Shown one piece after another: positions 2,556 through 49,024 of a stretch of DNA of 64,000 nucleotides. Origin of the DNA: an uncultured Chloroflexia bacterium (GTDB lineage Bacteria; Chloroflexota; Anaerolineae; Anaerolineales; Villigracilaceae); the NCBI GenBank assembly GCA_963746745.1, contig CAVVCL010000005.1:28733-92732 (forward strand), written 5' to 3'. Position 1 is the stretch's first letter; every line of letters begins with the position of its first letter. A program made the position numbers and the translations under genes. The notes under the pieces are model-generated. The model searched no databases. It worked only from the letters and a program-made list of their open reading frames with translations, and was not told the origin of the DNA.

Positions 2556-2613
2556 GTCAGCAGAAGTTCATCTGTGATCCATATACTGCACATCCAAAGG
2601 AGCCCGCCACTTC

Positions 2614-3357: not shown

Positions 3358-3361
3358 AAGA

Positions 3362-3404: not shown

Positions 3405-3422
3405 CGGTGTGCCTTTTTTGAC

Positions 3423-3614: not shown

Positions 3615-3631
3615 AGCCCGAGTTCCCGTTC

Positions 3632-4907
3632 TCAGTCGACCTGATCATAACCCGTATTCACGGCATACACGCGCCCGCGTTTGATCACCGTGCGCGCGAG
3701 ATTGGTCCCGAATCGATATCCCACGTGGCGGTAGTCCGGCGCGTCCAGAACCAGTAGATCGGCCAGCTTGCCCTCCTCCAGCGAACCGATGCTGTCGGCC
3801 CGGCGGATGGCGTGGGCCGCGTTGATCGTGGCCGCCGCGATGGCTTGTGCAGGTGTCAGACCCATGAAGCGGCAGGCCAGGGCGATCACGAACTGCATCG
3901 AACTCATTCCATGCGGTGCCTGGATTGCAGTCCGTAGCCAGGGCCAGCAGTCCGCCAGCTTCCAGGATTCTGCGCGCCGGCGTGTACTCGTGCTCTCCGA
4001 GGCCGAACGGCGTGCACGGCAGCGCCACGGCCACTGTCTCCGACTTGGCCAGCGCCGCAATGTCCGCACCCGAGGTCTTGACCAGGTGGTCGGCGGAAGC
4101 CGCCCCCAACTCGGCCGCCAGCGTGGCCCCGCCGAGGTTGTCGAATTCGTCCGCATGGATCTTAAGGGGGAAACCGAGTTCACGTGCCTTTGACAAGATC
4201 TCCCGTGATTGCGCCAAATTGAAAGCTCGATCCTCGCAGAACACGTCCACGAATGGCAGGGCACGTGCACTCGCGTGCGTCTGCCACCATTCGCGGACGC
4301 CGGGCAGCATCGTGCGGCACAACAGGTCCGTATAACCCTGCGGATCAGCGCTGAATTCTGGCGCGATCGCATGGGCGCCCAGGTAGGTGGGTGCCAGGTC
4401 GATCGGCAGTTCTGCGTCGAGTGCCAGCAGCGCCTCCAACAGCCGCAGTTCCGCCCCGGCTTCCAGGCCATAGCCCGTTTTTGCCTCGACGGTGGTTGTT
4501 CCGTGGGCGAACATGCGTTGCAGCCGCGGGCGGGTTTGGTCCATCAATGTCTGAATCGACGCTCCGCGCGTGAGTTTCAATGTTGACAGAATGCCGCCGC
4601 CGGCCGCCAGGATGTCGAGGTACTTCGCTCCCTCCAGCCGCATCTCGAATTCCATGGCGCGGTCGCCCACCCAGATCACATGCGTGTGCGGGTCGACCAG
4701 CCCGGGCATCACCACGCATCCGCTTGCATCCAGTTCCGGCTCCTGTCCGTATGCACCGCGCAGATCGCGCGTGGTCCCCACCGCCGCGATCTTCTCGCCG
4801 CGGATCAGCACGGCGCCATCCTCGATGATGCCCAGCGTGCCGAGCGCCTTGCCGCGCTGCGGACCGCCTGCGAGCGTCAGCAGCTGTGTCGCCGAGTGGA
4901 TCAGCAT
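3632..4907 (-). pseudogene. hutI: Imidazolonepropionase, frame-disrupted (1-nt shift near 3905-3915) or assembly indel
   Basis: N-terminal 330 aa lie in the frame of ORF 3645..4979 (MLIHSATQLLTL..., PGLVDPHTHV, KIHADEF, ATDCNPGTAW). The C-terminal 90 aa lie in the frame of ORF 3632..4471 (SSMQFVIALACRFMGLTPAQAIAAATINAAHAIRRADSIGSLEEGKLADLLVLDAPDY). Start taken at ATG 4907. Confidence 0.85.
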
Positions 4908-33546: not shown

Positions 33547-35640
33547 TCAGTCGGCGGCGCTTGTCTCACTGCCCGGCGCATGCTCCGCCCGCCGAACGGT
33601 CCGGCGAACGGTCTCCGGGTCGCGGTCCGGCCAAGCGGCCACCAGGATGCCGAACAGAAACACGAAGGCGCCGATCCACATCCAATTGATCAAGGGATTG
33701 ACGAAGATCTTGAAAGTTGCGCCGTTGGCGGTCGCCGGCTGCCAATCCACCAGGATCACATACAGGTCATCCTTCAATGTGGAACGATCTCCCGGAATGG
33801 TCATGTTCTGCTGCGAATCGGGATAGTAATCGATGCGGGGGTGCAGCTCGCCGAGGTAGTTGCCGCCTGTATCGTAGACCCCAACCACGGCACGCGTCAC
33901 CTGCCGGCCGTCCGGCCCATTGAACTGTGCGATCGAATCGTATTTGACGCTGTAATCGCCCAGCCTGAGGGAACCGTCCACCGGAAGAGTGCCCTGGGTC
34001 TGAATCTGAAAGAACCCAATGCCCAAGATGCCGATGGCCATGAGCATCATGCTGATGTGGATGATGTAGCCGCCGTAGCGGCGACGATTTCGGCCTACCA
34101 GGGTCCAGAGCGCCACGGCGAAGTTCTCGTGCTGTGCCCGGCGGCGCGCCTGCGTGGCGCGCCAGAACTCCTGAAGCGTGACCAGCAGGACGAAGGTGAT
34201 CAGAAAGAAGCCAACCAGGGCAAGGCCGTTGCGCGTGTAGGTGGCATAGATGCCGGCCGTGACCAGCACAGCGATCAGCGCCGGCTTCCAGAGTGCCCGA
34301 CCCAGCGTCCGGATGGTGGAATGTCCCCAGGCAGAGAGCGGCGCAATGCCCATCAGAAGCATGAGGGTTGCAAAGAGGGGCGCCGTGGCTCGATTGTAGA
34401 AAGGCGGCCCGACGGTGACTTTCTGCCCGGTGATCAGTTCAGAGATCAAGGGGAAGATCACGCCCCAGAAGCAGACCACCAACACGCTCATGAAGAGCAG
34501 GTTGTTGAGCAGGAAGAGGGCTTCCCGCGAGAGAACTGACTTCATTTCGGTCTCGCTGCGCAAGGTGGGCCAGCGATAGATGACCAGGGCGATCGAAGTA
34601 ATGAAGGTCACTCCGATGAATGCGAAGAAGGCGGGCCCGATGGCGCTCTGCGCAAAGGCATGCACCGACGAGAGCACCCCGGAGCGCGTCAGGAATGTGC
34701 CGAAAATTACGAGCGCATACGTGAGAATCACGAGAATCATGTTCCAGTGCTTCAGCAGGCCGCGCTTCTCCTGAATCATCACCGAGTGCAGAAAAGCCGT
34801 GCCGGTCAACCATGGCATGAGGGCCGCGATCTCAACAGGGTCCCAGCCCCAGAAGCCTCCCCAACCGAGCACGTCATACGCCCAGCGGCTGCCGAGCACC
34901 AAGCCAAAGGAGAGGAAGAGCCAGGCCCAGAGCGTCCAACGGCGTGTCAGCCGGATCCATCGATCATCGCTTCGGCCGGTTATGAGGGCAGCCATCGCAA
35001 AAGCGTACGGTATGACGAACGAGACAAAGCCCAGGTACAGCATTGGCGGGTGGATGATCATGCCCGGATGCCGCAGCAGCGGATTCAATCCGTTCCCGTC
35101 CGAAGGGAAGAATGCCATGGCACCTGCTGGAGCGAACATGCTGGTGAGCACCTGCCCGTCCACCGTCTGCCAGTAGCGGGCAAAGGGATTCTCGTAGAAG
35201 ACGACGAGGCCGAGGAAGAAGGCCGTCGTGATGGCAGTGACAACGATCACCCAAGGGAGGAACTCCCGATCGCGGCTCCACTTCCGGAGGGTCACCAGGG
35301 AGGCGAAGGCCGACATCAGCCATGACCAAAACACCAGAGAGCCGGCCTGCCCGCCCCACCAAGCCGTTACCTTGAGATAGGTCGGCATGCTGCGACTGGT
35401 GACCTGGTAAACGAAAGAGACCTCAAAATGGTTTGTGACCAGCAAGTAGATCAAGCAGGCCGCGGCCAGAGTGATCAGAGGCCAGAGCAAGAGCATGGCG
35501 CGCCGGGCTGACTCGACCAGGCCGGCTGATTTGGTGCGATCTCCATAGATTGCCGCCGTCACGCTATAGAGCGCCACGAAGAAAGCTACGACTAAGATTC
35601 CATATCCAATTTCAGCGATCATGAGGGTCTCCTGCGCCAA
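33547..35640 (-). CDS. ccmF: Cytochrome c haem lyase subunit CcmF
   Basis: ORF 33547..35640, 697 aa polytopic. WWD-type region WGGFWGWDPVE and the conserved His-containing helices typical of CcmF/NrfE. Confidence 0.92.
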   Translation of the reverse strand: MAQETLMIAEIGYGILVVAFFVALYSVTAAIYGDRTKSAGLVESARRAMLLLWPLITLAAACLIYLLVTNHFEVSFVYQVTSRSMPTYLKVTAWWGGQAGSLVFWSWLMSAFASLVTLRKWSRDREFLPWVIVVTAITTAFFLGLVVFYENPFARYWQTVDGQVLTSMFAPAGAMAFFPSDGNGLNPLLRHPGMIIHPPMLYLGFVSFVIPYAFAMAALITGRSDDRWIRLTRRWTLWAWLFLSFGLVLGSRWAYDVLGWGGFWGWDPVEIAALMPWLTGTAFLHSVMIQEKRGLLKHWNMILVILTYALVIFGTFLTRSGVLSSVHAFAQSAIGPAFFAFIGVTFITSIALVIYRWPTLRSETEMKSVLSREALFLLNNLLFMSVLVVCFWGVIFPLISELITGQKVTVGPPFYNRATAPLFATLMLLMGIAPLSAWGHSTIRTLGRALWKPALIAVLVTAGIYATYTRNGLALVGFFLITFVLLVTLQEFWRATQARRRAQHENFAVALWTLVGRNRRRYGGYIIHISMMLMAIGILGIGFFQIQTQGTLPVDGSLRLGDYSVKYDSIAQFNGPDGRQVTRAVVGVYDTGGNYLGELHPRIDYYPDSQQNMTIPGDRSTLKDDLYVILVDWQPATANGATFKIFVNPLINWMWIGAFVFLFGILVAAWPDRDPETVRRTVRRAEHAPGSETSAAD

Positions 35641-35792
35641 GCTGTCATCAGGCGATGACGGCGGGGGCCGCGAGCCAAGCTTTCTCTACACTAAGACACA
35701 AACAACGGTCAGGCTTAATGATCATTGCGGTCGGGACGCCTTCTGGACTGCCCGTTGCCGCAGTCCGATCCGGCGATGGCCGGCGCGAGGAT

Positions 35793-35824
35793 GAGAAAAC
35801 CTGACGATACAAAGCGCCGTCAGG
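35793..35824 (-). terminator. Rho-independent terminator after ccmE
   Basis: Reverse strand reads CCTGACG-GCGCTTTGTAT-CGTCAGG followed by TTTTCTC. It lies in the 263-nt gap between ccmE and ccmF. Confidence 0.6.
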
Positions 35825-35903
35825 TCCGGTGTATCCAATGGCTTGATGGACTAAAACCGCAGAGCAACTTCAGCTCTCCAAGCTGCCGCCTTGCCCCACT
35901 CCA

Positions 35904-36389
35904 CTAGGAAGATCCGGCGGCCTGGCTGGGCACCGCCTCTTGATACTTGGTGGGGCATTTGAGCAGCAGTTCGTCAGCATGGAAGCTACCGTCTGCAAGC
36001 ACCTGGCCGGTCATAATGGCCTGGGCCTCGTCCTTTAGCAGATCGGGTTTCGGTCCCGAGTACACGACCTTCATCCGGTTGCGATTGGGGTCGATGACCG
36101 CGGCGTGCAGCACGGCCGCGAGGCCGCCTTCTGCCTCCACTTGCTGGTTATCGCCCGGCACGTGAGCGACCTCGAAAGTCAGGGTCAGCGACTGAGGATC
36201 ATATTGAATGGTATCTCCGACGACGGCGCCCGAGACCCGCAGATTTTTCCCGACAACACTCTGGCCTTGGGCCTTGAGTTCATCGATGGTCATGAAGTAC
36301 TCTGCATTGGCCTGCGTGGCGGAGACAATCAAGTAGACCACGGCTGCCAGGATCACAACCCCACCGATGATAAATTTGGAACGTCCCAT
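35904..36389 (-). CDS. ccmE: Haem chaperone CcmE, CxxxY variant
   Basis: ORF 35904..36389. N-terminal TM anchor and OB-fold region (NLRVSGAVVGDTI...). The haem-binding position reads LLKCPTKYQE, where canonical CcmE has LAKHDENY. Confidence 0.85.
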   Translation of the reverse strand: MGRSKFIIGGVVILAAVVYLIVSATQANAEYFMTIDELKAQGQSVVGKNLRVSGAVVGDTIQYDPQSLTLTFEVAHVPGDNQQVEAEGGLAAVLHAAVIDPNRNRMKVVYSGPKPDLLKDEAQAIMTGQVLADGSFHADELLLKCPTKYQEAVPSQAAGSS

Positions 36390-36539: not shown

Positions 36540-37229
36540 CTATTCCAGCGATATCAGCCCCGTACGGAGGGCGAATTTTACCAGTTCGGTGCGCGAGTGC
36601 ATGTTGAGCCGGCTCATGATGCGTTCCCGGTGGCGGGCAATCGTCTTGGGGCTCAAGCCGAGCTGGCTTCCGATCTCCACGTTGCTCTCCCCGCGCGCCA
36701 CTAGTTCGAGCACCTGGCGCTCCCGCGGACTGAGTACCTCCAGTCCTTCGGGCTGCGCAGGCCGGGCCTGCGGCAGTGCCTCGCGCGCAGTGGAAGCCTC
36801 TGCCAGGCGTTGGTAGTCCTCGATCAGCCAGCGGGCGAGAGCGGGCTGAAGGTAGACGTGGCCTTCGGCAACGGCATGGATGGCCGCGACCAGTTCGTCT
36901 GCGGCCGCCTGCTTGGTCAGGTAGCCCGAGGCGCCCGCCGCAAGCATCTGCATGAAGTACTGCTTGTCATCGTGTATGGTCAGCGCCAGCACCTGTGCTT
37001 CGGGGCAGGCCTTCTTCAGTTGACGCGTGGCCTCCAGTCCGTCGACTCCCGGCATGCCGATATCCATAAGAACGATGGCTGGTCTGGTCTCGACAGCCCG
37101 TTCGACAGCTTCGATCCCATTGCGAGCTTCGGCGACCACAAGGAACTCGCCCTGAGACTCAAGAAAGGACCTCAGACCCGTGCGGACGATGTCGTGGTCG
37201 TCCACCAGCAGTAACCGGATCGGTTCCAT
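36540..37229 (-). CDS. NarL/LuxR-family response regulator (REC plus HTH), no adjacent kinase
   Basis: ORF 36540..37229. LLVDDHDIVR, phospho-acceptor region VLMDIGMPG, and the LuxR HTH LSPRERQVLELVARGESNVEIGSQLGLSPKTIARHRERI. Confidence 0.9.
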   Translation of the reverse strand: MEPIRLLLVDDHDIVRTGLRSFLESQGEFLVVAEARNGIEAVERAVETRPAIVLMDIGMPGVDGLEATRQLKKACPEAQVLALTIHDDKQYFMQMLAAGASGYLTKQAAADELVAAIHAVAEGHVYLQPALARWLIEDYQRLAEASTAREALPQARPAQPEGLEVLSPRERQVLELVARGESNVEIGSQLGLSPKTIARHRERIMSRLNMHSRTELVKFALRTGLISLE

Positions 37230-37834: not shown

Positions 37835-40054
37835 ATGTCGTTGAGGAAAATGCTTGTTCTTATTGGCGCATTGCTGCTAGGCGCCGTGATATTGGCGGCC
37901 TGCGGGGGAGGGCAAAGCACGTCAGCTCCCGCTGCGCCGGCGACGACGGCCGCGCCAGCCGCGCCCACATTGAACGTTCCGTTCAAGGACGAATTCCTGG
38001 CGTCCGGGCATGCCAACGCGACAGACGTACCCTTCACGCACTGGGATACGGCCAATCCCGCGGAGGTGCCGCCTGCCTGTGCGAGATGCCATACTTCGGC
38101 CGGCTACCAGGAGTTCGTGGCAACGGGCAAAGTCGCGGCCGCGATCAAGGCGCCTGCCGGCGCGTTCAATTGCGATACGTGCCACAACCCGGCCGCCATG
38201 GCGTTGACCTCGGTCACCTTCCCCTCGGGCAAGGTCGTTGAGACCTCCGAGGAAGGCGAAGCGCGCTGCATGACCTGCCATCAGGGTCGCGAGTCCAAGG
38301 TCAGCGTCGACAAGCAGATCAGCGACTTCAACGTTACAGACGTCGATGCCGTCGTGGCTCCGATGAAGGATGCAAGCGGCAATAACGTCGTCTTTGGTTT
38401 CCGCAACGTCCATTACTTCGCGGCAGGCGCCACGCTTTACGGTTCGCAGGCCGAAATGGGCTACGAGTACGATGGCAAGACATATGATCCGAAGTTCCGC
38501 CATGTGCCCGAGTTCGACACCTGCATTGCGTGCCATGACCAGCACGGCACCACGGTGCGCGTGGACAAGTGCGCCGAGTGCCACCAGGGCGTAAAGACCG
38601 TTGATGACCTGAAGAACAATCGCGAGAACGGCTCGTTGGTCGATTACAACGGCAACGGCGACACCAAAGAGGGCATCTACTACGAACTGAAGGGCCTGCA
38701 GGACACACTGCTTGGCTCCATCCAGATGTATGCCAAGGAAGTGGCGGGCACCGGTCTCGTCTACGATGCAACCACGTATCCGTACTGGTTCGCGGATGCC
38801 GATGGCGACGGCAATGCAGATCAGAAGGATGGCAGCCCGGTAGCTTACACGACCTGGACCGCACGCATGCTGAAGGCGGCTTACAACTACGGCGTGGTGG
38901 CTGGGGATCCCGGCGCGTTCGCGCACAATGCCAAGTACGACATCGAATTGATGTATGACTCGATCTCTGACCTCAACACCAAGCTTTCGACGCCCGTCGA
39001 CATGTCGAAGATGGCGCGCGATGATGCGGGTCACTTTGCCGGCGATACCGAGCCGTTCCGACATTGGGACAGCACGGGTGAGGTTCCGGCGGCATGCGCG
39101 AAGTGCCACAGCGCGACCGGCCTGCCGGAATTCATCCATAACGCGGGCACCGAAGTTGTGACCAAGTCCGGCGTACAGATCACCGGTGTGGTTGGTCAGC
39201 CGCCGGCGAATGGCTTCATGTGCTCGACCTGCCACGACGAGGCCAACTGGCCGAACCGCTACGCGGTGACGAGTGTGGCGTTCCCGTCGGGCGTGTCCTT
39301 GACCTTCAGCACCGAGAAGGATGCGGACGGCAATCTTGTGCCGGTCGACTCCAACCTGTGCATCGAATGCCACCAGGGCCGCGAATCCACTCTAACCGTC
39401 AACAACTACCTGGCTGGCAAGCCGGACGACACGATCGACGCGAAGATCAGCTTCAAGAACGTCCATTACTTCGCCGCTGGCGCGACACTCTTCGGCGATG
39501 CCGCCCAGGTGGCATATCAATATGAAGGGCAAACATACGCCGGGCAGAACACGGTGCACCCGCTCAATAAGTGCACCGACTGCCATGATGTTCACCAGCT
39601 GACGGTCAAGGTCGATGCCTGCAAGGGCTGCCACACCAATGTAACGGGCGTCGCGGACCTGGACAAGATCCGGGCCACGACCGACACCACGGACTGGAAT
39701 GGCAACGGCGACGTGACGGAGGGCATCTACTCCGAGATCGACGGCTTCCGACAGGCGCTATTCACCGCCATCCAGGCGTACGCCGAAAAGAACGGGACGC
39801 CCATCGTCTACGATGCGGCAACCTACCCATATTTCTTTGTGGACGCGGACAAGGACGGCAAACCCGATACCGGCGCCAATGGCCCGGTGGGCTACAACGC
39901 CTGGACCCCACGTCTGATGAAGGCGGCCTATAACTACCAGTATTCGATCAAGGACCCAGGCGCCTTTGCTCACAACCCACAGTACGTGATGCAGTTCCTG
40001 TACGACTCGACGAAGGATCTGGGAGGCGACGTCTCGAAGTTCACGAGACCATAG
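37835..40054 (+). CDS. Decahaem c-type cytochrome lipoprotein (internal 5+5 haem duplication)
   Basis: ORF 37835..40054. SD GGAGAA precedes the start. Lipobox VILAAC. Ten CxxCH motifs: CARCH, CDTCH, CMTCH, CIACH, CAECH, CAKCH, CSTCH, CIECH, CTDCH, CKGCH. Confidence 0.9.
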   Translation: MSLRKMLVLIGALLLGAVILAACGGGQSTSAPAAPATTAAPAAPTLNVPFKDEFLASGHANATDVPFTHWDTANPAEVPPACARCHTSAGYQEFVATGKVAAAIKAPAGAFNCDTCHNPAAMALTSVTFPSGKVVETSEEGEARCMTCHQGRESKVSVDKQISDFNVTDVDAVVAPMKDASGNNVVFGFRNVHYFAAGATLYGSQAEMGYEYDGKTYDPKFRHVPEFDTCIACHDQHGTTVRVDKCAECHQGVKTVDDLKNNRENGSLVDYNGNGDTKEGIYYELKGLQDTLLGSIQMYAKEVAGTGLVYDATTYPYWFADADGDGNADQKDGSPVAYTTWTARMLKAAYNYGVVAGDPGAFAHNAKYDIELMYDSISDLNTKLSTPVDMSKMARDDAGHFAGDTEPFRHWDSTGEVPAACAKCHSATGLPEFIHNAGTEVVTKSGVQITGVVGQPPANGFMCSTCHDEANWPNRYAVTSVAFPSGVSLTFSTEKDADGNLVPVDSNLCIECHQGRESTLTVNNYLAGKPDDTIDAKISFKNVHYFAAGATLFGDAAQVAYQYEGQTYAGQNTVHPLNKCTDCHDVHQLTVKVDACKGCHTNVTGVADLDKIRATTDTTDWNGNGDVTEGIYSEIDGFRQALFTAIQAYAEKNGTPIVYDAATYPYFFVDADKDGKPDTGANGPVGYNAWTPRLMKAAYNYQYSIKDPGAFAHNPQYVMQFLYDSTKDLGGDVSKFTRP

Positions 40055-40234
40055 TCACCGGGCTCTTGAAGATAAATGATGATGGCGGGCGCAATCGCGC
40101 CCGCCATCGCGTTGCCGAGAGAACCCGTCTTGAAATCGGACAACTCCGTATGTTTTCCTATATAATTGGCGGACCGGTCTTACGCGTGTAGAAGCACCGG
40201 TCGCCAACCAGGTCGCAAGAGACAGGAGCGCGCG

Positions 40235-41398
40235 ATGACTTTGTCGAAGGCCATACGATCTCGGCTCGGGCTGTTGGCCTTGGGCATGGGTCTCGTAGTG
40301 CTTTTGGCAATCGCACTTGCGATGCCAGCCGCGGCGGCCAGACCGGCCGCTTCCCCGGGGCAGGACAAACCCTCGAATGATTTCTGCCTGGGTTGTCACA
40401 GCCAGCAAGGGCTGAGCAAGACGCTGGGCAACAGCGAAGTACTCTCCCTGACAATCGCCCCGGAGGCTTTCAAGCATAGCGCTCACAACGATGCGAACAT
40501 CCAGTGCGTGGATTGCCACACGGACATCACGAGCTTCCCCCATCCGGCGTTCCAGGCGGAATCGCGTCGAGCAGTCACGCTTCGACTGTACCAGTCGTGC
40601 AAGAACTGCCACGCTGAACAGTACAGCCTGACGCTGGACAGCGTACACCAGCAAGCGCTGGCAGCCGGGGACTTCAATGCAGCCGTCTGCACGGACTGCC
40701 ATAATCCACATGTTCAGCAGCCGCTCACGGACCCGAAAACCGGTGCTCTGCTGCCTGATGCACGGCTCCAAATACCGGAGACCTGTGCTCGTTGCCACAG
40801 CGCCATCTACGACGTGTACAAAGGAAGCGTTCACGGCGCTGCCTTGACCAATGCAGGCAACCTGGATGTGCCGACATGCATTGACTGCCATGGGGTGCAC
40901 AATATCCAGAGTCCGACCACGGCGCGCTTCCGCAACGATGTGCCGCAGCTGTGCGCCAAGTGCCATACGAATGCGACGCTCATGGCGCGGTACGGCATCT
41001 CGACGAACGTCCTCAATACGTATGTGGCCGACTTCCACGGGACGACGGTCACACTGTTTGAGCAGGTGTCGCCTGATACCCCGACCAACAAGCCCGTATG
41101 CACCGACTGCCACGGCGTGCATGATATTTCGAACGTCGACAATCCAACTACCGGCATCGCCATCAAGCAGAATCTTCTGGTCAAGTGTCAGCGCTGCCAC
41201 CCGGGTGCGACCACGGCGAATTTCACCGATGCGTGGATGAGCCACTATGTGGCCAGCCCACAACACTTCCCGCTGGTCTACTACGTTGGGCTGTTCTACA
41301 AGATCTTCGTTCCGGCCGTGATCGGCGGGATGCTGATATTCGTCGTCAGTGATTTTGTCAGACGACGAATCGACAGCCGGAAAGGAGTGCAGCGCTAA
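40235..41398 (+). CDS. Nonahaem c-type cytochrome with signal peptide and C-terminal TM anchor
   Basis: ORF 40166..41398; start set at ATG 40235 (MTLSKAIRSRLGLLALGMGLVVLLAIALA). Nine CxxCH motifs: CLGCH, CVDCH, CKNCH, CTDCH, CARCH, CIDCH, CAKCH, CTDCH, CQRCH. C-terminal helix FVPAVIGGMLIFVVSDF. Confidence 0.9.
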   Translation: MTLSKAIRSRLGLLALGMGLVVLLAIALAMPAAAARPAASPGQDKPSNDFCLGCHSQQGLSKTLGNSEVLSLTIAPEAFKHSAHNDANIQCVDCHTDITSFPHPAFQAESRRAVTLRLYQSCKNCHAEQYSLTLDSVHQQALAAGDFNAAVCTDCHNPHVQQPLTDPKTGALLPDARLQIPETCARCHSAIYDVYKGSVHGAALTNAGNLDVPTCIDCHGVHNIQSPTTARFRNDVPQLCAKCHTNATLMARYGISTNVLNTYVADFHGTTVTLFEQVSPDTPTNKPVCTDCHGVHDISNVDNPTTGIAIKQNLLVKCQRCHPGATTANFTDAWMSHYVASPQHFPLVYYVGLFYKIFVPAVIGGMLIFVVSDFVRRRIDSRKGVQR

Positions 41399-42612
41399 TG
41401 GCAAGGAAGACCGCCGCCCCGGCCCCGGTTCGTCGATACGTGCGCTTTTCAGTGGTGGACCGCGTCGAGCACCTGCTGGTGCTGCTGTCCTTCACAACGC
41501 TGGCCATCACCGGCTTGGTGCAGAAGTTTGCGTTGAATGCAGTTTCAGTATTTGTCATTACAGTGTGGGGAGGGGTGGAGGCGGTGCGCGCCACCCATCA
41601 CGTCGCCGCCACAGTGCTGATGCTGGTGGTGATTGTCCACTTGGTTGAGGTTGGCTACAAGGCGTACGTCTTGCGGACGCCGTTTGCCATGCTCCCGGGT
41701 CTTCAAGATGTGAAAGACGCGTGGATGGCCTTCCGTTACAACATCGGCCTTGGCAAGTCGCGGCCGCAGATGGGGCGTTACAGTTTCGAGGAGAAGGCCG
41801 AGTACTGGGCGCTGGTGTGGGGCATCCTCATTATGGCGTTTACCGGGTTCATGATGTGGAATCCACTCGCCACGGTGAAGCTCTTTCCGGGAGACTTCAT
41901 TCCGGCGGCAAAGACGGCGCACGGGGCAGAAGCCATTCTTGCCGTGCTGGCCATCATCGTGTGGCACCTGTACGGCGTCCAGCTGAAACGCTTCAACAAG
42001 TCCATCTGGACGGGTCAATTGACCGAAGAGGAGATGCTGCACGAGCATCCGCTGGAGCTGGCCGATATTAAGGCGGGGCTGGCTCAAGCCGCCGCCCCGG
42101 CAAAGGTGCTTAAGAGGCGGCGGCTGATTTACTACCCTGTCGCCGGCATCCTTGCTGCGGCAATGCTTTTCGGAGTGTATGGATTCATCAACGGTGAGCA
42201 GACGGCCATTACCACGGTGCCGCCCCAAGTTGCCACGGTGCCGATCTACGTTCCGCAAACACCAACGCCTCTACCGCCTACGCAGACGCCTGCGCCTTCT
42301 GCAACAGCCGGGCCCACGGCCGAGACGACGGCCGCTCCGGCCGGAGTCGTGACGTGGGCTGAGGTGGGACCCGTGTTTGCCGCCAAGTGCAGCATGTGCC
42401 ACGGTGCGACGCTGGCGACGAACGGCCTGAGCTTCGCAACGTATGCCCAGGCGCTAAAAGGTGCGCAGGACGGGGCAGTCATCTTGCCGGGCGATGCGGC
42501 GAACAGCAAGCTGATTCAAATCCAGTCACAAGGCGGGCATCCGGGCCAGTTGACGGCTGAGGAGCTGGCCCTGGTGAGCGCCTGGATCAAGGCGGGCGCG
42601 GTCGAGCACTGA
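41398..42612 (+). CDS. FdnI/HydC-like b-type cytochrome (membrane) fused to a C-terminal monohaem PSCyt1-like cytochrome c domain
   Basis: ORF 41398..42612. Its ATG overlaps the preceding TAA (TAATG), with SD AAAGGAG 10 nt upstream. RFSVVDRVEHLLVLLSFTTLAITGLVQKF and later His-containing helices fit the cytochrome b561/FdnI family. A Pro/Thr linker is followed by FAAKCSMCHG...WIKAGA. Confidence 0.8.
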   Translation: MARKTAAPAPVRRYVRFSVVDRVEHLLVLLSFTTLAITGLVQKFALNAVSVFVITVWGGVEAVRATHHVAATVLMLVVIVHLVEVGYKAYVLRTPFAMLPGLQDVKDAWMAFRYNIGLGKSRPQMGRYSFEEKAEYWALVWGILIMAFTGFMMWNPLATVKLFPGDFIPAAKTAHGAEAILAVLAIIVWHLYGVQLKRFNKSIWTGQLTEEEMLHEHPLELADIKAGLAQAAAPAKVLKRRRLIYYPVAGILAAAMLFGVYGFINGEQTAITTVPPQVATVPIYVPQTPTPLPPTQTPAPSATAGPTAETTAAPAGVVTWAEVGPVFAAKCSMCHGATLATNGLSFATYAQALKGAQDGAVILPGDAANSKLIQIQSQGGHPGQLTAEELALVSAWIKAGAVEH

Positions 42613-42624
42613 GTTTCTGCGGGG

Positions 42625-44358
42625 ATGGCAAGGCGCGGCCAGTTTTCGGGGAGCGGCGCCACGAGGAGGTGGAGTGTGAAATTGTGGGCGGGAGTACGGA
42701 AGTTCCTGTTCCCGGCGCCGGGCTCGCCGGTGTGGATGTTGGTCTTGCCGTACAGCGTGCTGGGGGTCCTGACGGTGTTGCTTTTGGTGGGTGGCGTTTC
42801 CGCTTGGGAGTACAGCAATTCGCCGAAATTCTGCGGGACAACCTGCCATACGATGCCGCCGGAGAACGCCGCCTATCAACTCTCGCCGCACGCCAATGTG
42901 ACTTGCGAGGAGTGCCATATCGGGCGGGCATCCATCGGGGACGAATTGGTGAGGAAGAGCCAGGGCATCAAAGAGACCTGGGACACAATCTTCCATCTCT
43001 ATACGCTGCCCATCCACGCGCAAGCCTTGCGGCCGGCGCGTGAGACGTGTGAGAAATGTCATCAGCCGGAGACGTTCTCAGCCGACAGCATGGAGCAAAT
43101 CGTGCAGTACGCGTCCGACCGGGACAACACGGCTACAACGACGTACCTGCTCTTGAAGACCGGCGGGGGTTCGAAACGCCAGGGGTTGGGCAAGGGCATC
43201 CACTGGCATATCGTCAATCAAGTGCAGTACTACGCGACGGACGACCTGAGCCAGAATATCCCATACGTGCGCGTGACGAACGATGACGGCTCAACGACGG
43301 AGTACGTGGATGTGCAGTCGGGGTTCGATCCCAACTCGATCCAGCCGGGTCAACTGAGGACCGTGGACTGCCTCACCTGCCACAACCGCGTGACGCACAA
43401 CTTCATGCCTCCCGAAGAGTCGGTGAACCTGGCCATGAGCCGCGGGCTTATTGATCCATCGATCCCCGACATCCATCTGAAGGCCGTGGAGGTGTTGAGC
43501 ACGAAGTACGACACGCGCGATCAAGCGGTGCGGGCCATCGACGGACTTGACCGGTACTACCAGAATTCGCTCTACAAGGGGCACGAGGACAAGATCCAGG
43601 CAGCGATCAAGACAATTCAGGGCATTTACGATCACACGGTCTTCCTGGATCAGAAGATCGATTGGACGACCTACCCGAACAACCTGGGCCACATCACTTC
43701 TCCGGGCTGCTTCCGCTGTCACGACGGCAAGCACCTGGATTCCAACCAGCAGGCCATACGCCTCGAGTGCAACCTATGCCACTCCATCCCGGTTGTGGCA
43801 GGCGCCCAAGACTTTGTCGCCAACATCGAGATCAGCCGGGGCCCCGAGCCTGAATCCCATCGGAACCCGAATTGGATCGGCCTCCACAACCAGTCGATCG
43901 ATAGTTCTTGCGTGGCCTGTCACACGATGGCAGACCCCGGCGGAACAAGCAATACGTCCTTCTGCTCAAACAGCGCCTGCCACGGGACAGTCTTGACGTA
44001 CGCTGGTTTTGATGCGCCCAAGCTGCGCGAGGTTCTGCAAGCGCAGGTGCCCACCCCGGCGCCGACGCCTGTCCCTCAGCCCGTGGTCGGGAATCCGACG
44101 TATGATGCCAACGTCGCGGCGGTCATCGGCCCGACATGCGGAGTCTGCCACAACCAGGATACGCTGGCCGGCGGCATGGACTTGACGACATACGCTGGAA
44201 TGATGAAAGGCGGCAAGGACGGCGCGGTGATTGTTCCAGGAGATTCGGCGAGCAGCCTCCTGGTTCAAATCCAGAGCTCACAGCACTTCGCAAATCTTTC
44301 GCGCGCTGACCTTGAGCTGGTGAAGCAATGGATTGACGCCGGGGCGCCTGAGAAATAG
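42625..44358 (+). CDS. NapC/NirT-like membrane-anchored multihaem cytochrome with a C-terminal PSCyt1-like domain
   Basis: ORF 42625..44358; GTG 42676 after AGGAGG is the more likely start. One N-terminal TM. Seven CxxCH motifs (CEECH, CEKCH, CLTCH, CFRCH, CNLCH, CVACH, CGVCH) plus CGTTCH (Cx3CH) and CSNSACH (Cx4CH). Confidence 0.85.
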   Translation: MARRGQFSGSGATRRWSVKLWAGVRKFLFPAPGSPVWMLVLPYSVLGVLTVLLLVGGVSAWEYSNSPKFCGTTCHTMPPENAAYQLSPHANVTCEECHIGRASIGDELVRKSQGIKETWDTIFHLYTLPIHAQALRPARETCEKCHQPETFSADSMEQIVQYASDRDNTATTTYLLLKTGGGSKRQGLGKGIHWHIVNQVQYYATDDLSQNIPYVRVTNDDGSTTEYVDVQSGFDPNSIQPGQLRTVDCLTCHNRVTHNFMPPEESVNLAMSRGLIDPSIPDIHLKAVEVLSTKYDTRDQAVRAIDGLDRYYQNSLYKGHEDKIQAAIKTIQGIYDHTVFLDQKIDWTTYPNNLGHITSPGCFRCHDGKHLDSNQQAIRLECNLCHSIPVVAGAQDFVANIEISRGPEPESHRNPNWIGLHNQSIDSSCVACHTMADPGGTSNTSFCSNSACHGTVLTYAGFDAPKLREVLQAQVPTPAPTPVPQPVVGNPTYDANVAAVIGPTCGVCHNQDTLAGGMDLTTYAGMMKGGKDGAVIVPGDSASSLLVQIQSSQHFANLSRADLELVKQWIDAGAPEK

Positions 44359-44471: not shown

Positions 44472-45740
44472 TTAGGCTGGGACCGTCTCCCGTATGTCGG
44501 CTTTGACGGTCTCGGCCTCCTCCACGACGAATCGATGGTTTACCACGTTCAGGTAGCGAACTCCGAGAGAGAAACCCAGAAGTCCATAGGCGATCACACC
44601 CATGCCCGTGACGATCTCTATCAAGGACGGGGTATAGGAGGCATACGCCACGGCTTGGCCGGGAAGGTACGGCATGACGACGAGCAGGCCGGAGAGATTG
44701 GTGTCCCATCGGTACGCTACCACGCCGATGACAACCAGTGCCAATGCCAGCATCCTCCAGAACCGGTTGCGCCGCGTGTATGGGGTTAGCAGCAAGACCA
44801 TCGGGACGAGAGAGCCCAGCAGCATCTCCAGTATCCAGAAGTTGAAAGAGAGCGGCCCGCCAGTAAACAAGGCGAAACCCTCCGTACGACCCGGGTCGTA
44901 CGTGTAGTGCTGAACAAAGGCATCCCAGAAGCGGAAGTAGAGATACCCGACGAGCGCCCAAGCCACAAAGCGGGAAAGGCGTTCCAGGAGGAAGTCGTTC
45001 ACTTTCGCCCTGGGTGTCAACCTGGCGGCAAGCATCGAAGCAAACAACGTAAGGGATATGCCTCCGATGATGGCGGAGAACATGAACAGGACGGTCATTT
45101 CGGGCTTGTACCAGATGGGCCGGGCCTTCAGGACGCCGTAGACGCCGCCTAGGGAGGACTGGTGCAGCATCGAAAGGCCCAGCCCGACGATGGCCAGGTA
45201 GGGCGCGTAATGATGCACGCTATTCATCTTCGCCGCCAAGGCAGGAAAGCGTTTCTTCAGCCAACTCAAGCTTGCAAAGATCGGCATGGACTCGAACACC
45301 AGTACCGTCAGGTACAGCATGACGCACATGGTGACTTCCCAGAGCAGCGAGTGGTCGTTCCAGTACACGAGAGCATGCCAGAATCGATCCGGACGGCCGA
45401 TGTCAAGAAGGAGCGAGAGCATGGCCATCGTGTAGCCGATCAGCCCGACGAACGTGGCCGTGCGGGCGACCGGCTGATAGCGCTTGAGCCCGATGAGGTA
45501 GACAGCCGCGCACAAGGTGAAGGCACCAGCGCTCAAGGCGATCGAAGAAAGGTCGATTGTGATCCACAAACCCCAGGGCACCAAGTCCGAGAGGTTGGTG
45601 ATCCACAGCCCCTTTGAGAAAACCAGGAAGCCGCCTGCCAGCGCCGCGAGGAGCACGAGGCCGAGACCAGCGAGCCAGAGCGTCCAGCGCGAAATTGTCG
45701 GCAGCGGCAACCGGATGCGTTTGAGATTACCGATCATCAT
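44472..45740 (-). CDS. NrfD/PsrC/HmcC-family polytopic quinone-interacting membrane subunit
   Basis: ORF 44472..45740. VPWGLWITIDLSSIALSAG, DIGRPDRFWHALVYWN and LLWEVTMCV are typical NrfD-family helices. The start overlaps the upstream stop (ATGA). Confidence 0.85.
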   Translation of the reverse strand: MMIGNLKRIRLPLPTISRWTLWLAGLGLVLLAALAGGFLVFSKGLWITNLSDLVPWGLWITIDLSSIALSAGAFTLCAAVYLIGLKRYQPVARTATFVGLIGYTMAMLSLLLDIGRPDRFWHALVYWNDHSLLWEVTMCVMLYLTVLVFESMPIFASLSWLKKRFPALAAKMNSVHHYAPYLAIVGLGLSMLHQSSLGGVYGVLKARPIWYKPEMTVLFMFSAIIGGISLTLFASMLAARLTPRAKVNDFLLERLSRFVAWALVGYLYFRFWDAFVQHYTYDPGRTEGFALFTGGPLSFNFWILEMLLGSLVPMVLLLTPYTRRNRFWRMLALALVVIGVVAYRWDTNLSGLLVVMPYLPGQAVAYASYTPSLIEIVTGMGVIAYGLLGFSLGVRYLNVVNHRFVVEEAETVKADIRETVPA

Positions 45741-46510
45741 GCCTCCATCTTCTGCGGATCGGCGGCGATGTAGTAGACACGCGGACCCGTCCCGAGATCC
45801 TCGCGCAGACGGTAGGTTACGTTGTCCTTGAGAAGCTTGCTGACCTGCGAGTCGGGGTTGTTCACATCACCGAAGACACGGGCGCCAGTGGGGCACACCA
45901 CGACGCACGCCGGTGTCGCGTCGGCGTCAACTCCGGGTTCGAGCCCGAGTGCCAGGCCACGATCTATCCGCTGGTAGCAGAATGAGCATTTTTCGACGAC
46001 GCCACGCGGTCGGCGCGCAACTTCCGGCTGCCCCCACTTGGGAACGGCCGGATTGGGGCCGTCGAAGGCTTGCCAGTTGAAGGATCTGGCCTGGTAGGGG
46101 CATGCCGCTTCGCAGTATCGACAGCCAATGCAACGGTCGTAGTCCATCATCACAATCCCGTCATCCCGGTAGTAGGATGCCTTGACCGGACAGACATCGA
46201 CGCAGGGGGCGTCCTCACAGTTCATGCAAGGCCGCGGGAGGAAGACGCTCTTTCCCGCAACCTCGCCGGCCGGTGTGACGCGATTCCACTCGATTTCAGG
46301 GTTGATGTCATTGTGCGCCTGGCACGCGAGGGTGCAGTAGCCACAGCCGAGGCACTTGGACTGGTCGATGACCATCGCCCACTGGCGCGGCCCTGTGTTT
46401 GAATTTTCAGAGGCCTCGGCGCCATGAAGCACCCGCGTGGCCGTGGCAGCAGTGGCACCCACGGCGGCGAGTTTGAGAAAGTCGCGTCGGCCAAGTCTCT
46501 TAGTCATCAT
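45737..46510 (-). CDS. Tat-exported 4Fe-4S ferredoxin-type subunit (NrfC/DmsB/HmcB-like)
   Basis: ORF 45737..46510. Twin-arginine signal GRRDFLKLAAVGATAA. Cys clusters CLGCGYCTLAC, CMNCEDAPCVDVCP, CIGCRYCEAACP, CSFC...CVVVCP. Confidence 0.88.
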   Translation of the reverse strand: MMTKRLGRRDFLKLAAVGATAATATRVLHGAEASENSNTGPRQWAMVIDQSKCLGCGYCTLACQAHNDINPEIEWNRVTPAGEVAGKSVFLPRPCMNCEDAPCVDVCPVKASYYRDDGIVMMDYDRCIGCRYCEAACPYQARSFNWQAFDGPNPAVPKWGQPEVARRPRGVVEKCSFCYQRIDRGLALGLEPGVDADATPACVVVCPTGARVFGDVNNPDSQVSKLLKDNVTYRLREDLGTGPRVYYIAADPQKMEA

Positions 46511-47477
46511 CGCCTCCGCGCTCGCGTTTTGCGAGTTTGCTGTACCACTTTTCGAGCCAGGGTGCCATCACCATACCCGCTGCCAGTCCGATCAGGGCCG
46601 CCAGGCCGGCGTACCCCAACGGGCTTACGGGGCTGGGATGGGGCGCAAGGCCAGCCTGTTGGATCTGCGCCGGCTGGGAAACAGTCATTGCGGCGGCCGG
46701 ATTGGTACCCACTGCGGACGCCGCGCTGTGCATCTGGTCGGAATGGCACGCATTGCAGCTGTCCAGATTGGCTTTGAAAGAATGGTCCGGAATCGCATGC
46801 GCATCGGGCGGGGTCGTCTCGCTGTGATTCACGTGGCAGTTGATGCAAGTGACGCCCTGCTGCTGATGAATCGTGTACGGGAAGTTCATGCTCACGTCTT
46901 TGTGGCAGGTGACGCACAACTGAGAGGCGTCGGTGTATTGGGCGCTTCCATCCCGGGGTGTTACCACCTTGAGGGAGGCACTGTGCGGGTCGTGGCAGGT
47001 GGTGCAGTTCATGCCGCGCTGGTAGTGGGTGCTTCCCTGCCAATCCTGCCAATCAAATCGTGTGTCGCTGTGACAACGGGCACACAGATCGGGGGACCGA
47101 TCGACCGGCATCGGCTCTTTGGGATGGCCGGCGACCATGGGGCCGTGGCAGGCTTCACACGCGACGCCGTCCTCCTGCCAGGTGCCGGTCGCTGGATCGT
47201 AGTTTGTGGCATGGCAGACAAGGCAGGCGCCCGGCTGTCCCTGGCTGTTCCAATCCTTAAGGAATGCCGGATCAGTGGCAGCCTGGCCATGCGCGCCGTC
47301 TTTCCATGCTGTCGCAAACTCCGTGTGGCAGGCGACACACGGCGGTGATTGCGGCGCCGGTTGGGTGGGGGCCACCGGGGTTGGATCTTGTGCCCGCGCG
47401 ACGAGAAGGGTGGCGCCCGCCGCCGCCACCGCAAACAAAGCTGCAATCAGGAGTTGTTTGAAACGTCGAAGCATCAT
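46500..47477 (-). CDS. Octahaem c-type cytochrome with C-terminal TM anchor
   Basis: ORF 46500..47477. Signal peptide. Eight CxxCH motifs: CVACH, CLVCH, CEACH, CARCH, CTTCH, CVTCH, CINCH, CNACH. C-terminal helix GYAGLAALIGLAAGMVMAPW. Overlaps the next gene by 8-11 nt. Confidence 0.9.
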   Translation of the reverse strand: MMLRRFKQLLIAALFAVAAAGATLLVARAQDPTPVAPTQPAPQSPPCVACHTEFATAWKDGAHGQAATDPAFLKDWNSQGQPGACLVCHATNYDPATGTWQEDGVACEACHGPMVAGHPKEPMPVDRSPDLCARCHSDTRFDWQDWQGSTHYQRGMNCTTCHDPHSASLKVVTPRDGSAQYTDASQLCVTCHKDVSMNFPYTIHQQQGVTCINCHVNHSETTPPDAHAIPDHSFKANLDSCNACHSDQMHSAASAVGTNPAAAMTVSQPAQIQQAGLAPHPSPVSPLGYAGLAALIGLAAGMVMAPWLEKWYSKLAKRERGGDDD

Positions 47478-47498
47478 TGCATCTCCTCTGGGGCCCGA

Positions 47499-47825
47499 CT
47501 AGGCTTGGGCCGGCAAAGGCGCCCGAAGCAGCACCGGGCAGCCTAGACATTTTTCGTTCAAGTAGCCGCTGGGGAGGCGAAGTGCCTGCCAGCAAGGCAG
47601 CGGCGACTTGTAGCCCAAACATGCTTTCCGCTGTGCCGGGGCACAGCCCTGGGTATTCCAGCACTGGGGCTTTTCGACTTTGAGCGGAATGCTATCCGCC
47701 TCCGTCTGCCAGTGGCGGTCGAGGCTGCGCAAGCCGGTTACTACAAGCACGGTGAGCAGAATCGGAACGGCCAAGCGGAGAGCCAGGCCAACGAGAACAG
47801 CGAGAGCCGCGGTTGAACTATTCAT
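47499..47825 (-). CDS. Small membrane protein with a Cys-rich domain containing two Cys-Trp motifs
   Basis: ORF 47499..47879; start set at ATG 47825 after AGGAGG. TM ALAVLVGLALRLAVPILLTVLVVTGL, then KPQCWNTQGCAPAQRKACLGYKSPLPCWQALRLPSGYLNEKCLGCPV. Confidence 0.55.
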   Translation of the reverse strand: MNSSTAALAVLVGLALRLAVPILLTVLVVTGLRSLDRHWQTEADSIPLKVEKPQCWNTQGCAPAQRKACLGYKSPLPCWQALRLPSGYLNEKCLGCPVLLRAPLPAQA

Positions 47826-48379: not shown

Positions 48380-49024
48380 TCAGGGTTTGATGATCCCCTT
48401 GCGGATGGCGTATCTGACCAATTCCGACCTGGAGTGTAGATTCAATTTTCGCATGATGTTTTCGCGGTGACGGTCCACCGTTTTTGGGCTGATCACCAGC
48501 GACACGGCGATCTCCTCGGTACTGGTGCCTTCGGCGAGATACGTCAACACCTCGCGCTCCCGCTCTGTCAGGCCATCCAAAGTCGCCTTTTCCTCGGCGG
48601 GGTGATCCTGATTCAAGAAGTCAGTCACCAATAGCTTGGCCAGGGACGGGTACAAGTAGACCTCGCCCGAGAAGGCCGCTCTAATGGCCCTCAGCAACTC
48701 CTCAGGCGCAGCGCGCTTCGGTACGTATCCGGAAGCTCCGGCCTCCAACATCTTGAAGAAATATTCTTCATCCTCGTGGATGGTCAGCGCCACAACCGAG
48801 ATGCTTGGAAAGCGCTTCTTGATTGCCCGTGTGGCTTCTATTCCTGAGAGATCGGGTAACCCGATATCCATCAGGATTACATCGGGGCGCACGGTCCCGG
48901 CCGCCTCTATTGCCTCCGCAGCGGTCCCGGCTTCCCCGACGATATCAACATCGTCTTCTGAGCCCAGGAGCATCTTCAAGCCAGAGCGAACGACGGCGTG
49001 GTCGTCAACCAGCAGCAGGCGCAT
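48380..49024 (-). CDS. NarL/LuxR-family response regulator
   Basis: ORF 48380..49204; start set at ATG 49024 (MRLLLVDDHAVVRSG), overlapping the kinase 3' end. Phospho-acceptor ILMDIGLPD. HTH LTEREREVLTYLAEGTSTEEIAVSLVISPKTVDRHRENI. Confidence 0.9.
   Translation of the reverse strand: MRLLLVDDHAVVRSGLKMLLGSEDDVDIVGEAGTAAEAIEAAGTVRPDVILMDIGLPDLSGIEATRAIKKRFPSISVVALTIHEDEEYFFKMLEAGASGYVPKRAAPEELLRAIRAAFSGEVYLYPSLAKLLVTDFLNQDHPAEEKATLDGLTEREREVLTYLAEGTSTEEIAVSLVISPKTVDRHRENIMRKLNLHSRSELVRYAIRKGIIKP

Follow-up and report, generated by a model that had tools for sequence, protein, structure and literature searches.

A split CbcL-like gene pair in an uncultured Chloroflexota bacterium: a nine-haem cytochrome c and an FdnI-type cytochrome b with a tethered haem domain

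The gene pair at the locus

The stretch of DNA analysed here, called the window, comprises 64,000 nucleotides of contig CAVVCL010000005.1 (assembly GCA_963746745.1) from an uncultured Chloroflexia bacterium found in soil (Chloroflexota; Anaerolineales; Villigracilaceae). Positions 40,235 to 42,612 of the window carry two adjacent genes, A and B, which an earlier note made from the sequence alone had described as a split version of CbcL, a cytochrome of Geobacter sulfurreducens in which a nine-haem domain and a cytochrome b are fused in one chain.

Gene A (40235-41398, plus strand) encodes a nonahaem c-type cytochrome of 387 amino acids counted from its ATG. A Shine-Dalgarno-like AGGAG is present in the sequence 6 nucleotides upstream of this ATG (40224-40228, plus strand), and the start at 40235 is supported by the homologues, which are also about 387 amino acids long. 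All 18 cysteines of A fall within nine CxxCH motifs (residues 51, 91, 122, 152, 184, 215, 240, 289, and 318), and a motif scan of A found no CxxxCH, CxxCK, or further haem motif. According to hydropathy, residues 1 to 36 (40235-40342, plus strand) are a predicted signal peptide or N-terminal anchor, with a basic n-region, a hydrophobic core, and then PAAAA; the AlphaFold model of A has a helix at residues 5 to 28 followed by a low-confidence stretch. The nine-haem domain, delimited by invariant columns (residues 49 to 337; 40379-41245, plus strand), was modelled with a predicted local distance difference test score (pLDDT) of about 90 across residues 50 to 260. Among 55 A homologues, nine distal histidines are invariant (H84, H103, H138, H159, H200, H222, H268, H296, and H337), and from these conserved residues the c haems of A all appear to be bis-His ligated. 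The domain is followed by a membrane helix predicted by hydropathy at about residues 346 to 372 (41270-41350, plus strand), in a hydrophobic stretch that reaches about residue 375, and modelled at residues 346 to 382, which is the counterpart of CbcL helix 1. In the same 55 homologues the helix contains an invariant G364-G365 and no histidine. The residues after the helix are RRRIDSRK, and the basic tail RRRIDSRKGVQR is predicted to be cytoplasmic.

Gene B (41398-42612, plus strand) encodes an FdnI/HydC-type dihaem cytochrome b with a monohaem c domain, 404 amino acids in total. Both open reading frames (ORFs) lie on the same strand in different frames, and the stop codon of A (TAA, 41396-41398) overlaps the start codon of B (ATG, 41398-41400) in a TAATG at 41396-41400; a Shine-Dalgarno AAGGAG for gene B can be read inside gene A (41382-41387, plus strand). 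From this arrangement we infer that the TAATG overlap couples the translation of A and B. In Pfam, PF01292 (prokaryotic cytochrome b561/Ni-hydrogenase cytochrome b) matched B residues 16 to 199 with an E value of 3.6e-13 and PF07635 (PSCyt1) matched residues 331 to 374, and the best NCBIfam match was TIGR01583, formate dehydrogenase subunit gamma (47.9 bits against a cut-off of 115.85). The only CxxCH of B is at residue 331.

The cytochrome b domain of B covers residues 14 to 226 (41437-42075, plus strand) and four helices. Its candidate b-haem ligands are H25 (41470), H67 (41596), H175 (41920), and H190 (41965). In a phmmer comparison with the Protein Data Bank (PDB), H18, H57, and H155 of FdnI (1kqf_C) aligned with H25, H67, and H175 of B, and FdnI H169 fell one position off H190. 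Among 120 close homologues of B, H25, H68 (41599 in the window), H81 (41638), H175, H190, and H217 (42046) are invariant, H67 is present in 119, and C331, C334, and H335 of the haem c motif are invariant together with H381. H81 sits on helix 2, 14 residues past H67 and level with the haem on the cytoplasmic side, and it might stand in for the helix-1 histidine of CbcL, which is missing here, or belong to a quinone site.

An AlphaFold2 model of B, built on 54 sequences, had a mean pLDDT of 70 and a predicted template modelling score (pTM) of 0.50. Helices were modelled at residues 19-43, 60-91, 130-154, and 167-191, with a fifth at residues 235-270. The top Foldseek match of this model in the PDB was FdnI (1kqf_C; E value of 3e-4, probability of 1.00, TM score of 0.67 on the target), and the second was the cytochrome b of Escherichia coli hydrogenase-1. 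The features claimed in the earlier note for the two proteins were recovered: exactly nine CxxCH motifs and a C-terminal membrane helix in the upstream protein by motif count and hydropathy, the TAATG with a ribosome-binding site inside gene A, and an FdnI-like cytochrome b by Pfam, phmmer, and Foldseek. The four b-haem histidines, which the note proposed to check, are present in B. By homology, B is identified as an FdnI/HydC-type four-helix dihaem cytochrome b.

The part of B that follows the cytochrome b domain begins with the fifth membrane helix, placed by hydropathy at about residues 240 to 266 (42115-42195, plus strand) and the counterpart of CbcL helix 6, which brings the chain back to the outer face. 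A flexible linker that is rich in proline, threonine, and alanine comes next (residues 269 to 315 by composition; 42202-42342, plus strand); it was modelled as disordered, with a pLDDT below 50. The C terminus is a tethered, PSCyt1-like monohaem c domain (42343-42609, plus strand), defined by PF07635 and by invariant columns and modelled confidently with a pLDDT of 80 to 90. Since a domain with covalent haem that follows helix 5 must lie outside the membrane, B has its N terminus inside, five helices, and its C terminus outside. This is the FdnI topology plus one helix, and it fits the basic cytoplasmic tail of A. Small monohaem c domains of the PSCyt1 kind usually have methionine as a ligand where B has H381, and the position of H381 at the expected place of the sixth ligand suggests bis-His ligation of this domain. 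In sequence, the monohaem domain shares 46% identity with the C-terminal domain encoded by the next gene (42625-44358), and it is related to the C-terminal domain of a Rieske/cytochrome b fusion in relatives.

Comparison with CbcL

In CbcL, a periplasmic domain with nine haems (residues 30-279) precedes six helices that carry an HydC/FdnI-like dihaem b domain (PMC9129911; PMC6295460; bioRxiv 10.1101/2021.04.15.440034), and the protein is required for the use of low-potential extracellular acceptors (PMC9129911; bioRxiv 10.1101/2021.04.15.440034). Published Geobacter biochemistry describes nine bis-His haems at -194 mV that reduce PpcA. Joshi et al. counted the helix-1 histidine of CbcL among five candidate b-haem ligands and as a possible basis of potential-dependent gating. 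CbcL and the MtoC and MtrH proteins of Fe(II)-oxidising bacteria belong to one family (PMC6295460), and a 2018 survey found homologues of these proteins in many phyla and none in Chloroflexi, all of them carrying 3 to 23 haem motifs and four to six helices (PMC6295460). The survey appears to have recovered fused proteins only.

As CbcL references we used orthologues from species in the homologue list of PMC9129911 (Trichlorobacter thiogenes, Geomonas propionica, and Oryzomonas japonica), while GSU0274 itself was compared by description. Supplementary alignment fragments of PMC9129911, which are garbled as text, served as a query and returned three C-terminal CbcL-like fragments, one of them from a Desulfuromonas thiophila genome. 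A degenerate DNA pattern for the peptide YWEKFDFxAVFWGM was then used on species-representative genomes and gave at least 120 loci. Among the matches listed, nearly all were from Desulfuromonadia, Syntrophia, or Myxococcota; they included the three reference species and Geomesophilobacter sediminis, which is on the same homologue list, and 80 of the 91 complete motif-bearing ORFs had nine CxxCH motifs and a length of 610 to 716 amino acids.

There were also CbcL-type proteins with enlarged haem domains, namely L043 and L045 (19 CxxCH), L055, L114, and L117 (15 CxxCH), and L080 (10 CxxCH in 1200 amino acids), from metagenome-assembled genomes (MAGs) labelled Syntrophus, Desulfomonilia, Syntrophales, Bacteriovoracaceae, and unclassified Deltaproteobacteria; these fit the reported range of 3 to 23 haems. 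The CbcL-like genes of five loci (L001 4697-6540, L006, L052, L076, and L101, from Desulfuromonas thiophila and several long-read MAGs) are frameshifted in the deposited assemblies, which creates spurious haem-free 'cytochrome b' ORFs and truncated multihaem ORFs. The D. thiophila gene was read through its frameshift to a protein of 614 amino acids for the comparison.

When A and B were joined end to end, they aligned with the D. thiophila protein as one collinear segment of 582 columns (178 bits, E value of 9e-52, 26% identity) that starts at the first CxxCH and stops where the b domain ends. The alignments with CbcL of O. japonica (206 bits, E value of 1e-60, 613 columns) and of T. thiogenes (173 bits) were likewise collinear. 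A hidden Markov model (HMM) built from 79 fused nonahaem CbcL-type proteins gave 158 bits to A and 114.5 bits to B, with B matching positions 321 to 568 of the model. The three other multihaem cytochromes of the window scored 45, 17, and 17 bits with this HMM, so the match of A is not a generic similarity between CxxCH-rich proteins. In the reciprocal direction, HMMs of the A and B families picked out the CbcL ORFs among 4,116 ORFs of Desulfobacterota loci with median scores of 90 and 82 bits, compared with 16 bits for an unrelated eight-haem ORF. Profile comparison with hhalign assigned A to CbcL with a probability of 100% (E value of 1e-46) and B with a probability of 99.8% (E value of 6e-30).

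The agreement extends to single residues. All 27 residues of the nine haem motifs in the profile of the 79 proteins are kept in A, eight CbcL-invariant distal histidines align exactly, and CbcL H277, the ninth, is offset by one position relative to A H337. The four candidate ligands of B, H25, H67, H175, and H190, correspond to H355, H397, H515, and H530 of T. thiogenes CbcL, which are invariant in all 79 CbcL-type proteins. The one membrane helix of A and the five of B add up to six, in the order of CbcL. By homology, A is a nine-haem, all bis-His c domain on the outer face whose helix is CbcL helix 1, the first 270 residues of B provide helices 2 to 6, and the two proteins are divided within the cytoplasmic loop that joins CbcL helices 1 and 2. 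No solved structure of a CbcL-like protein turned up when the PDB was searched by sequence.

These results uphold the view of the earlier note that the pair has the parts list of CbcL in two polypeptides, as seen in the collinear alignment, the HMMs, and hhalign, and the similarity of the nonahaem protein to the CbcL c domain, on which that view had been staked, was significant (158 bits with the HMM and 100% with hhalign). Its remark that a c domain in first place departs from CbcL was mistaken, since the nine-haem domain of CbcL is also N-terminal (PMC9129911; PMC6295460). The C-terminal monohaem domain, said there to be missing from CbcL, is indeed without a counterpart, and the CbcL orthologues end just past helix 6.

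Apparent split versions of CbcL in Desulfobacterota MAGs were considered and rejected as a sign of natural splits in that phylum: of five haem-free ORFs, four are frameshifts and one arises from an in-frame stop with an inserted segment. The latter is in an uncultured Geobacter sp. MAG (L057, reverse strand, offsets 1880-4043), where the stop stands exactly after CbcL helix 1, at the same place as the split between A and B, and about 60 residues unrelated to CbcL follow (MKKFGEILVEAGVISTATLHRALERQ...). This interruption could be a genuine insertion or an assembly error. A literature search found no published description of a CbcL-like pair in Chloroflexota.

Conservation and gene neighbourhood

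In a public protein collection searched at an E value of 1e-5, B-like proteins numbered over 2,700 and A-like proteins over 6,400, and those with a named source come from Anaerolineales or Chloroflexota MAGs. The usual annotation of the pair is 'cytochrome c3 family protein' and 'cytochrome b/b6 domain-containing protein'. An A-like nine-haem gene lies directly upstream of the B gene in all six loci with readable DNA (the window, L123, L124, L125, L126, and L129). The codons overlap in five of these six, as TAATG in L123, L124, and L125 and as ATGA in L126, and a 4-nucleotide gap separates the genes in L129, a 38% identical relative. A comparable purine-rich motif occupies the Shine-Dalgarno position of B in five related loci. 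For 17 pairs of A and B homologues, the records of both members carry an identical value for the longest contig. Because the homologues are abundant and the overlap recurs in relatives, the pattern of A and B is not due to chance.

We also ran a full HMMER scan of 1.84 billion representatives with the first 270 residues of B, which gave 1,893 clusters at an E value of at most 1e-3. In the best 150 of these 1,893 clusters, the b domain came first in 140 and a fused N-terminal multihaem domain was present in 10, five of which have nine haems. P0272, P0311, P0328, P0362, and P0381 are natural fusions of A and B, and P0272 is 51% identical to B and has the same gene cluster context. Such fusions, with CbcL as a further example, are 'Rosetta stone' evidence for a joint action of A and B. 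The extension past helix 5 varies in its haem content: 68 representatives with the b domain first had 0, 1, 2, or at least 3 CxxCH motifs in 15, 10, 11, and 32 cases, respectively.

Three long contigs (L123, L124, and L125) with B homologues at 53 to 74% identity share the layout of the cluster. The order is CcmE/F/H, a response regulator, a multihaem lipoprotein of about 730 amino acids, A, and B, followed by a Rieske protein and a cytochrome b/c fusion, an NrfH-like cytochrome, and a divergent module of NrfD, Fe-S, and multihaem proteins. In the window, the gene upstream of the pair encodes a decahaem lipoprotein of 739 amino acids (37835-40054, plus strand) with ten CxxCH motifs, an LAAC lipobox, two internal repeats, and a tether rich in alanine, proline, and threonine. 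It is syntenic upstream of the pair in L123, L125, and L127, and it had no PDB match by sequence. In P0269 (L126 2607-5510), a homologue of this lipoprotein is fused to the C terminus of a B-like protein, where it replaces the monohaem domain. Because its homologue occurs as a C-terminal extension in this way, the decahaem lipoprotein is a candidate physical partner of B and is likely the electron partner of the pair.

Downstream, an NrfH/ImcH-like membrane cytochrome with one helix (42625-44358, plus strand) starts 12 nucleotides past B. Its product matched NapC/NirT and NrfH in Pfam and NCBIfam and NrfH 2j7a_C with an E value of 1.5e-8. It has an atypical CX3CH (FCGTTCH, residue 70) right after the helix, six CxxCH motifs at residues 94 to 429, and a PSCyt1 haem as in B. 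It is 34% identical over 395 columns (E value of 2e-69) to a three-helix CX3CH cytochrome (L002 7076-8524) encoded about 660 nucleotides downstream of a CbcL-like gene in a Desulfuromonadia-like locus. The window protein has one helix and not three, as PMC6295460 reports for the homologue of Anaerolinea thermophila; ImcH is known here by description. Thus, genes related to CbcL and to ImcH, both of them quinol oxidases of Geobacter, appear to be neighbours.

In the relatives, genes for a Rieske protein and a cytochrome b with c-type domains lie between B and the NrfH/ImcH-like gene (L123 11238-14505, L124 12063-15355, and L125 11238-14504). No Rieske gene was found in the window by tblastn, and only 12 nucleotides separate B from the NrfH/ImcH-like gene there (42612-42625); the Rieske/cytochrome b genes may have been lost or moved in this genome. 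The divergent module (44472-47825, minus strand) encodes an NrfD/QrcD-like membrane protein (44472-45740), a DsrO/QrcC-like Fe-S protein with a twin-arginine (TAT) signal (45737-46510), an eight-haem cytochrome (46500-47477), and a conserved protein of 108 amino acids (47502-47825). As judged from its protein families, it resembles a quinone module of the Qrc/alternative complex III (ACIII) type, and it is conserved beside the pair in relatives. CcmF, CcmE, and two LuxR-type response regulators, one with a HisKA_3 histidine kinase, are encoded on the minus strand at 33547-36389, 36540-37229, and 48380-50444. These flanking Ccm and regulator genes, syntenic in relatives, suggest a self-contained, regulated cytochrome island. 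Catalytic genes of formate dehydrogenase or hydrogenase were not seen among the genes examined between 29.9 and 53.0 kb.

A GC-rich palindrome with a 12-bp stem (40081-40108) lies just past the upstream multihaem gene, and a promoter-like CGGACA-18-TATAAT (40137-40166) lies 70 nucleotides before gene A; its match to the consensus occurs at chance frequency. The scan for promoters and terminators as a whole gave matches at the chance level. A, B, and the ImcH-like gene may form a transcription unit of their own.

Proposed function and relation to known systems

Taken together, A and B are probably the two subunits of a CbcL-family membrane bc complex, a quinol:multihaem-cytochrome oxidoreductase that would work without an Fe-S, flavin, or molybdopterin partner. 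The position of the cut, in the loop between helices 1 and 2, is topologically neutral: the signal peptide of A would direct its export and the C-terminal helix would halt it in the membrane, and B would insert with a cytoplasmic N terminus. In formate dehydrogenase-N (1KQF), the C-terminal membrane helix of FdnH packs on FdnI, and the helix of A would pack against B in the same manner. The overlapping stop and start codons would keep the two subunits in step. By analogy with FdnI and with proposals for Geobacter CbcL, quinol would be oxidised near the cytoplasmic-side haem b, electrons would cross the membrane via the two b haems and pass along the nine c haems, and they would then exit to extracytoplasmic acceptors.

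The monohaem domain, on a tether of about 45 residues, would most likely act as a carrier that links quinol-oxidising complexes to a common partner such as the decahaem lipoprotein, and would thereby take the place of the soluble cytochromes of the periplasm with which CbcL works in Geobacter. It is likely a common tethered electron carrier, because the same domain occurs on the adjacent NrfH/ImcH-like cytochrome and on the Rieske/cytochrome b fusion of the relatives. Chloroflexota, including Anaerolineales, are generally regarded as single-membraned and without an outer membrane, and a tethered carrier would suit an envelope that retains no pool of soluble cytochromes. A broader version of this idea is doubtful, namely a fully membrane-tethered network in which the PSCyt1 module on CbcL-like, ImcH-like, and, in relatives, Rieske/cytochrome b complexes would feed one decahaem lipoprotein and replace the soluble cytochromes of Geobacter. 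Because it has no helix-1 histidine, the present variant would also lack the potential-dependent 'switch-off' proposed for CbcL; if so, it would offer a ready test of that hypothesis.

Several observations weigh against the assignment of the pair to a CbcL-type complex in extracellular electron transfer. The identity to CbcL is only 24 to 29%. The helix-1 histidine of CbcL (L019 H310), invariant in 79 of 79 proteins, is replaced by G365 in A, CbcL H535 is replaced by Q195 in B, and B has its own invariant H68, H81, and H217, which are not conserved in the CbcL profile; because of these absences and additions, the haem b ligation or the quinone site may differ from that of CbcL. The confidence of the B model is only moderate (pLDDT and pTM as given above), and the carrier role of the monohaem domain is one that we only infer. 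Additionally, the Rieske/cytochrome b complex encoded between B and the NrfH-like gene of the relatives may mean that the cluster serves ordinary respiration and not extracellular electron transfer. No RNA run with the sequence was found among public runs, and only soil metagenome DNA runs contained it.

One alternative concerns the direction of electron flow, as nothing in the sequence fixes it. The same complex could run in reverse and reduce quinone with external electrons, for example from Fe(II), from humics in reduced form, or from another cell acting as partner. Such a function has been suggested for MtoC and MtrH of iron oxidisers, in whose family PMC6295460 places CbcL; FdnI-type cytochromes b normally reduce quinone; and the pair of the relatives adjoins a Rieske/cytochrome b complex. 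However, all ten c haems look bis-His ligated, which in CbcL goes with low potentials (-194 mV) that suit quinol oxidation, and we consider reverse flow unlikely. In a very improbable reading, A is a multihaem catalyst akin to nitrite reductase or hydroxylamine oxidoreductase, and B serves only as its quinone-linked membrane anchor. Some A homologues are annotated as 'ammonia-forming cytochrome c nitrite reductase subunit c552', Pfam gave weak Cytochrom_C552 matches, and the Foldseek matches of the A model in the PDB were all hydroxylamine oxidoreductases. However, the C552 score of 16.5 bits is below the family cut-off of 24.1, the fold matches were not significant (best E value of 0.013, TM score of about 0.3), and A lacks a CxxCK motif; every haem has a conserved distal histidine and thus no open coordination site, and the nearest relatives of A are the electron transfer domains of CbcL.

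Two further explanations were weighed. B could belong to a formate dehydrogenase, as its gamma subunit, or to a hydrogenase, as its cytochrome b, and its adjacency to A would then be meaningless, a reading encouraged by homologues named 'cytochrome b subunit of formate dehydrogenase' and by TIGR01583 as the top NCBIfam match. That match is far under its cut-off, however, and neither the conserved cluster nor the syntenic loci showed FdnG/FdnH or hydrogenase genes. B scored 114.5 bits with the CbcL profile versus 50 bits with the general Pfam family, and the coupled stop and start codons and the natural fusions link it to A, which makes such an unrelated subunit highly improbable. The split could also be a frameshift or assembly artefact of a single CbcL-like gene, as frameshifted CbcL genes do occur in MAGs (the five loci named above). 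Yet the two-gene layout is found in independent assemblies at 38 to 90% identity, with proteins of about 387 and 403 to 404 amino acids, an overlap, and a ribosome-binding site, and the N terminus of B (MARK...) is conserved as a start; an artefact is extremely improbable.

Split quinol oxidases made of b and c subunits are known in principle, and the pair described here, widespread but unremarked, would be a variant of them. Few routes have been identified that carry electrons from the quinone pool of metal-respiring bacteria to the outside, and CbcL is among them. To our knowledge, no CbcL structure has been solved and its proposed redox gating is unexplained. A widespread two-subunit version extends the CbcL family to a phylum in which the survey of fused proteins (PMC6295460) found none, and because the Chloroflexota version is split, homology screens for extracellular electron transfer that are limited to fused CbcL may undercount. 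The pair is also a natural dissection of CbcL into a b subunit and an exported, anchored nine-haem subunit, which could be expressed and studied apart, and the missing helix-1 histidine and the added tethered haem are natural experiments on the b-to-c hand-off and on gating. It offers a candidate quinol oxidase for abundant soil and sediment Anaerolineales, whose respiration is poorly known. For specialists in extracellular electron transfer, it should be useful rather than astonishing.

Among known systems, CbcL is the closest. A shares with it an exported domain at the N terminus whose nine CxxCH motifs agree in order and spacing and whose distal histidines are conserved. In both systems there follow one helix, a cytoplasmic loop, a four-helix FdnI/HydC-type b domain with the same four histidines, and an extra last helix, and both are without an Fe-S, flavin, or molybdopterin subunit. 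The two histidines of the last b helix are spaced by 15 residues in B and in CbcL, compared with 14 in FdnI. In contrast to the single chain of CbcL, A and B are two polypeptides, so the pair is not a fusion. The helix of A has no histidine, whereas CbcL helix 1 has an invariant one, and B has glutamine for CbcL H535 and the additional invariant H68, H81, and H217. Past the last helix, where CbcL ends, B adds a linker and a PSCyt1 monohaem domain, and the host is a member of the Chloroflexota.

CbcBA (GSU0593-0594) is the known precedent for a split bc-type cytochrome (bioRxiv 10.1101/2021.04.15.440034) and resembles the pair as a two-gene quinol oxidase composed of a dihaem cytochrome b and a multihaem c subunit with a C-terminal helix. 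Joshi et al. state that CbcB is not homologous to CbcL in sequence and that CbcA has seven haems and a helix that gives the fourth b-haem histidine. Going by this description, the pair differs in that all four b histidines are in B and the helix of A has none. A c plus b gene pair in L001 showed no similarity to B (E value of 0.2).

FdnI/FdnH (1KQF) and HyaC/HydC share the fold and the histidine pattern of B, FdnI being the best Foldseek match, and FdnH, like A, gives one C-terminal membrane helix as the partner subunit. However, the partner of B is a nine-haem cytochrome and not an Fe-S protein with a molybdoenzyme, and B has a fifth helix and a c-type domain and scores far under the cut-off for formate dehydrogenase gamma subunits. 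Membrane-tethered cytochromes c, such as cytochrome c_y and the c domains fused to bc complexes or oxidases in Gram-positive bacteria, occur in organisms without a soluble periplasmic pool. They resemble the C terminus of B in having a small monohaem domain at the membrane surface on a tether rich in proline, threonine, and alanine. Unlike them, the domain of B is PSCyt1-like, with a conserved histidine for the usual methionine, and is carried by a CbcL-type cytochrome b, and the same module is found on two or three complexes of one cluster.

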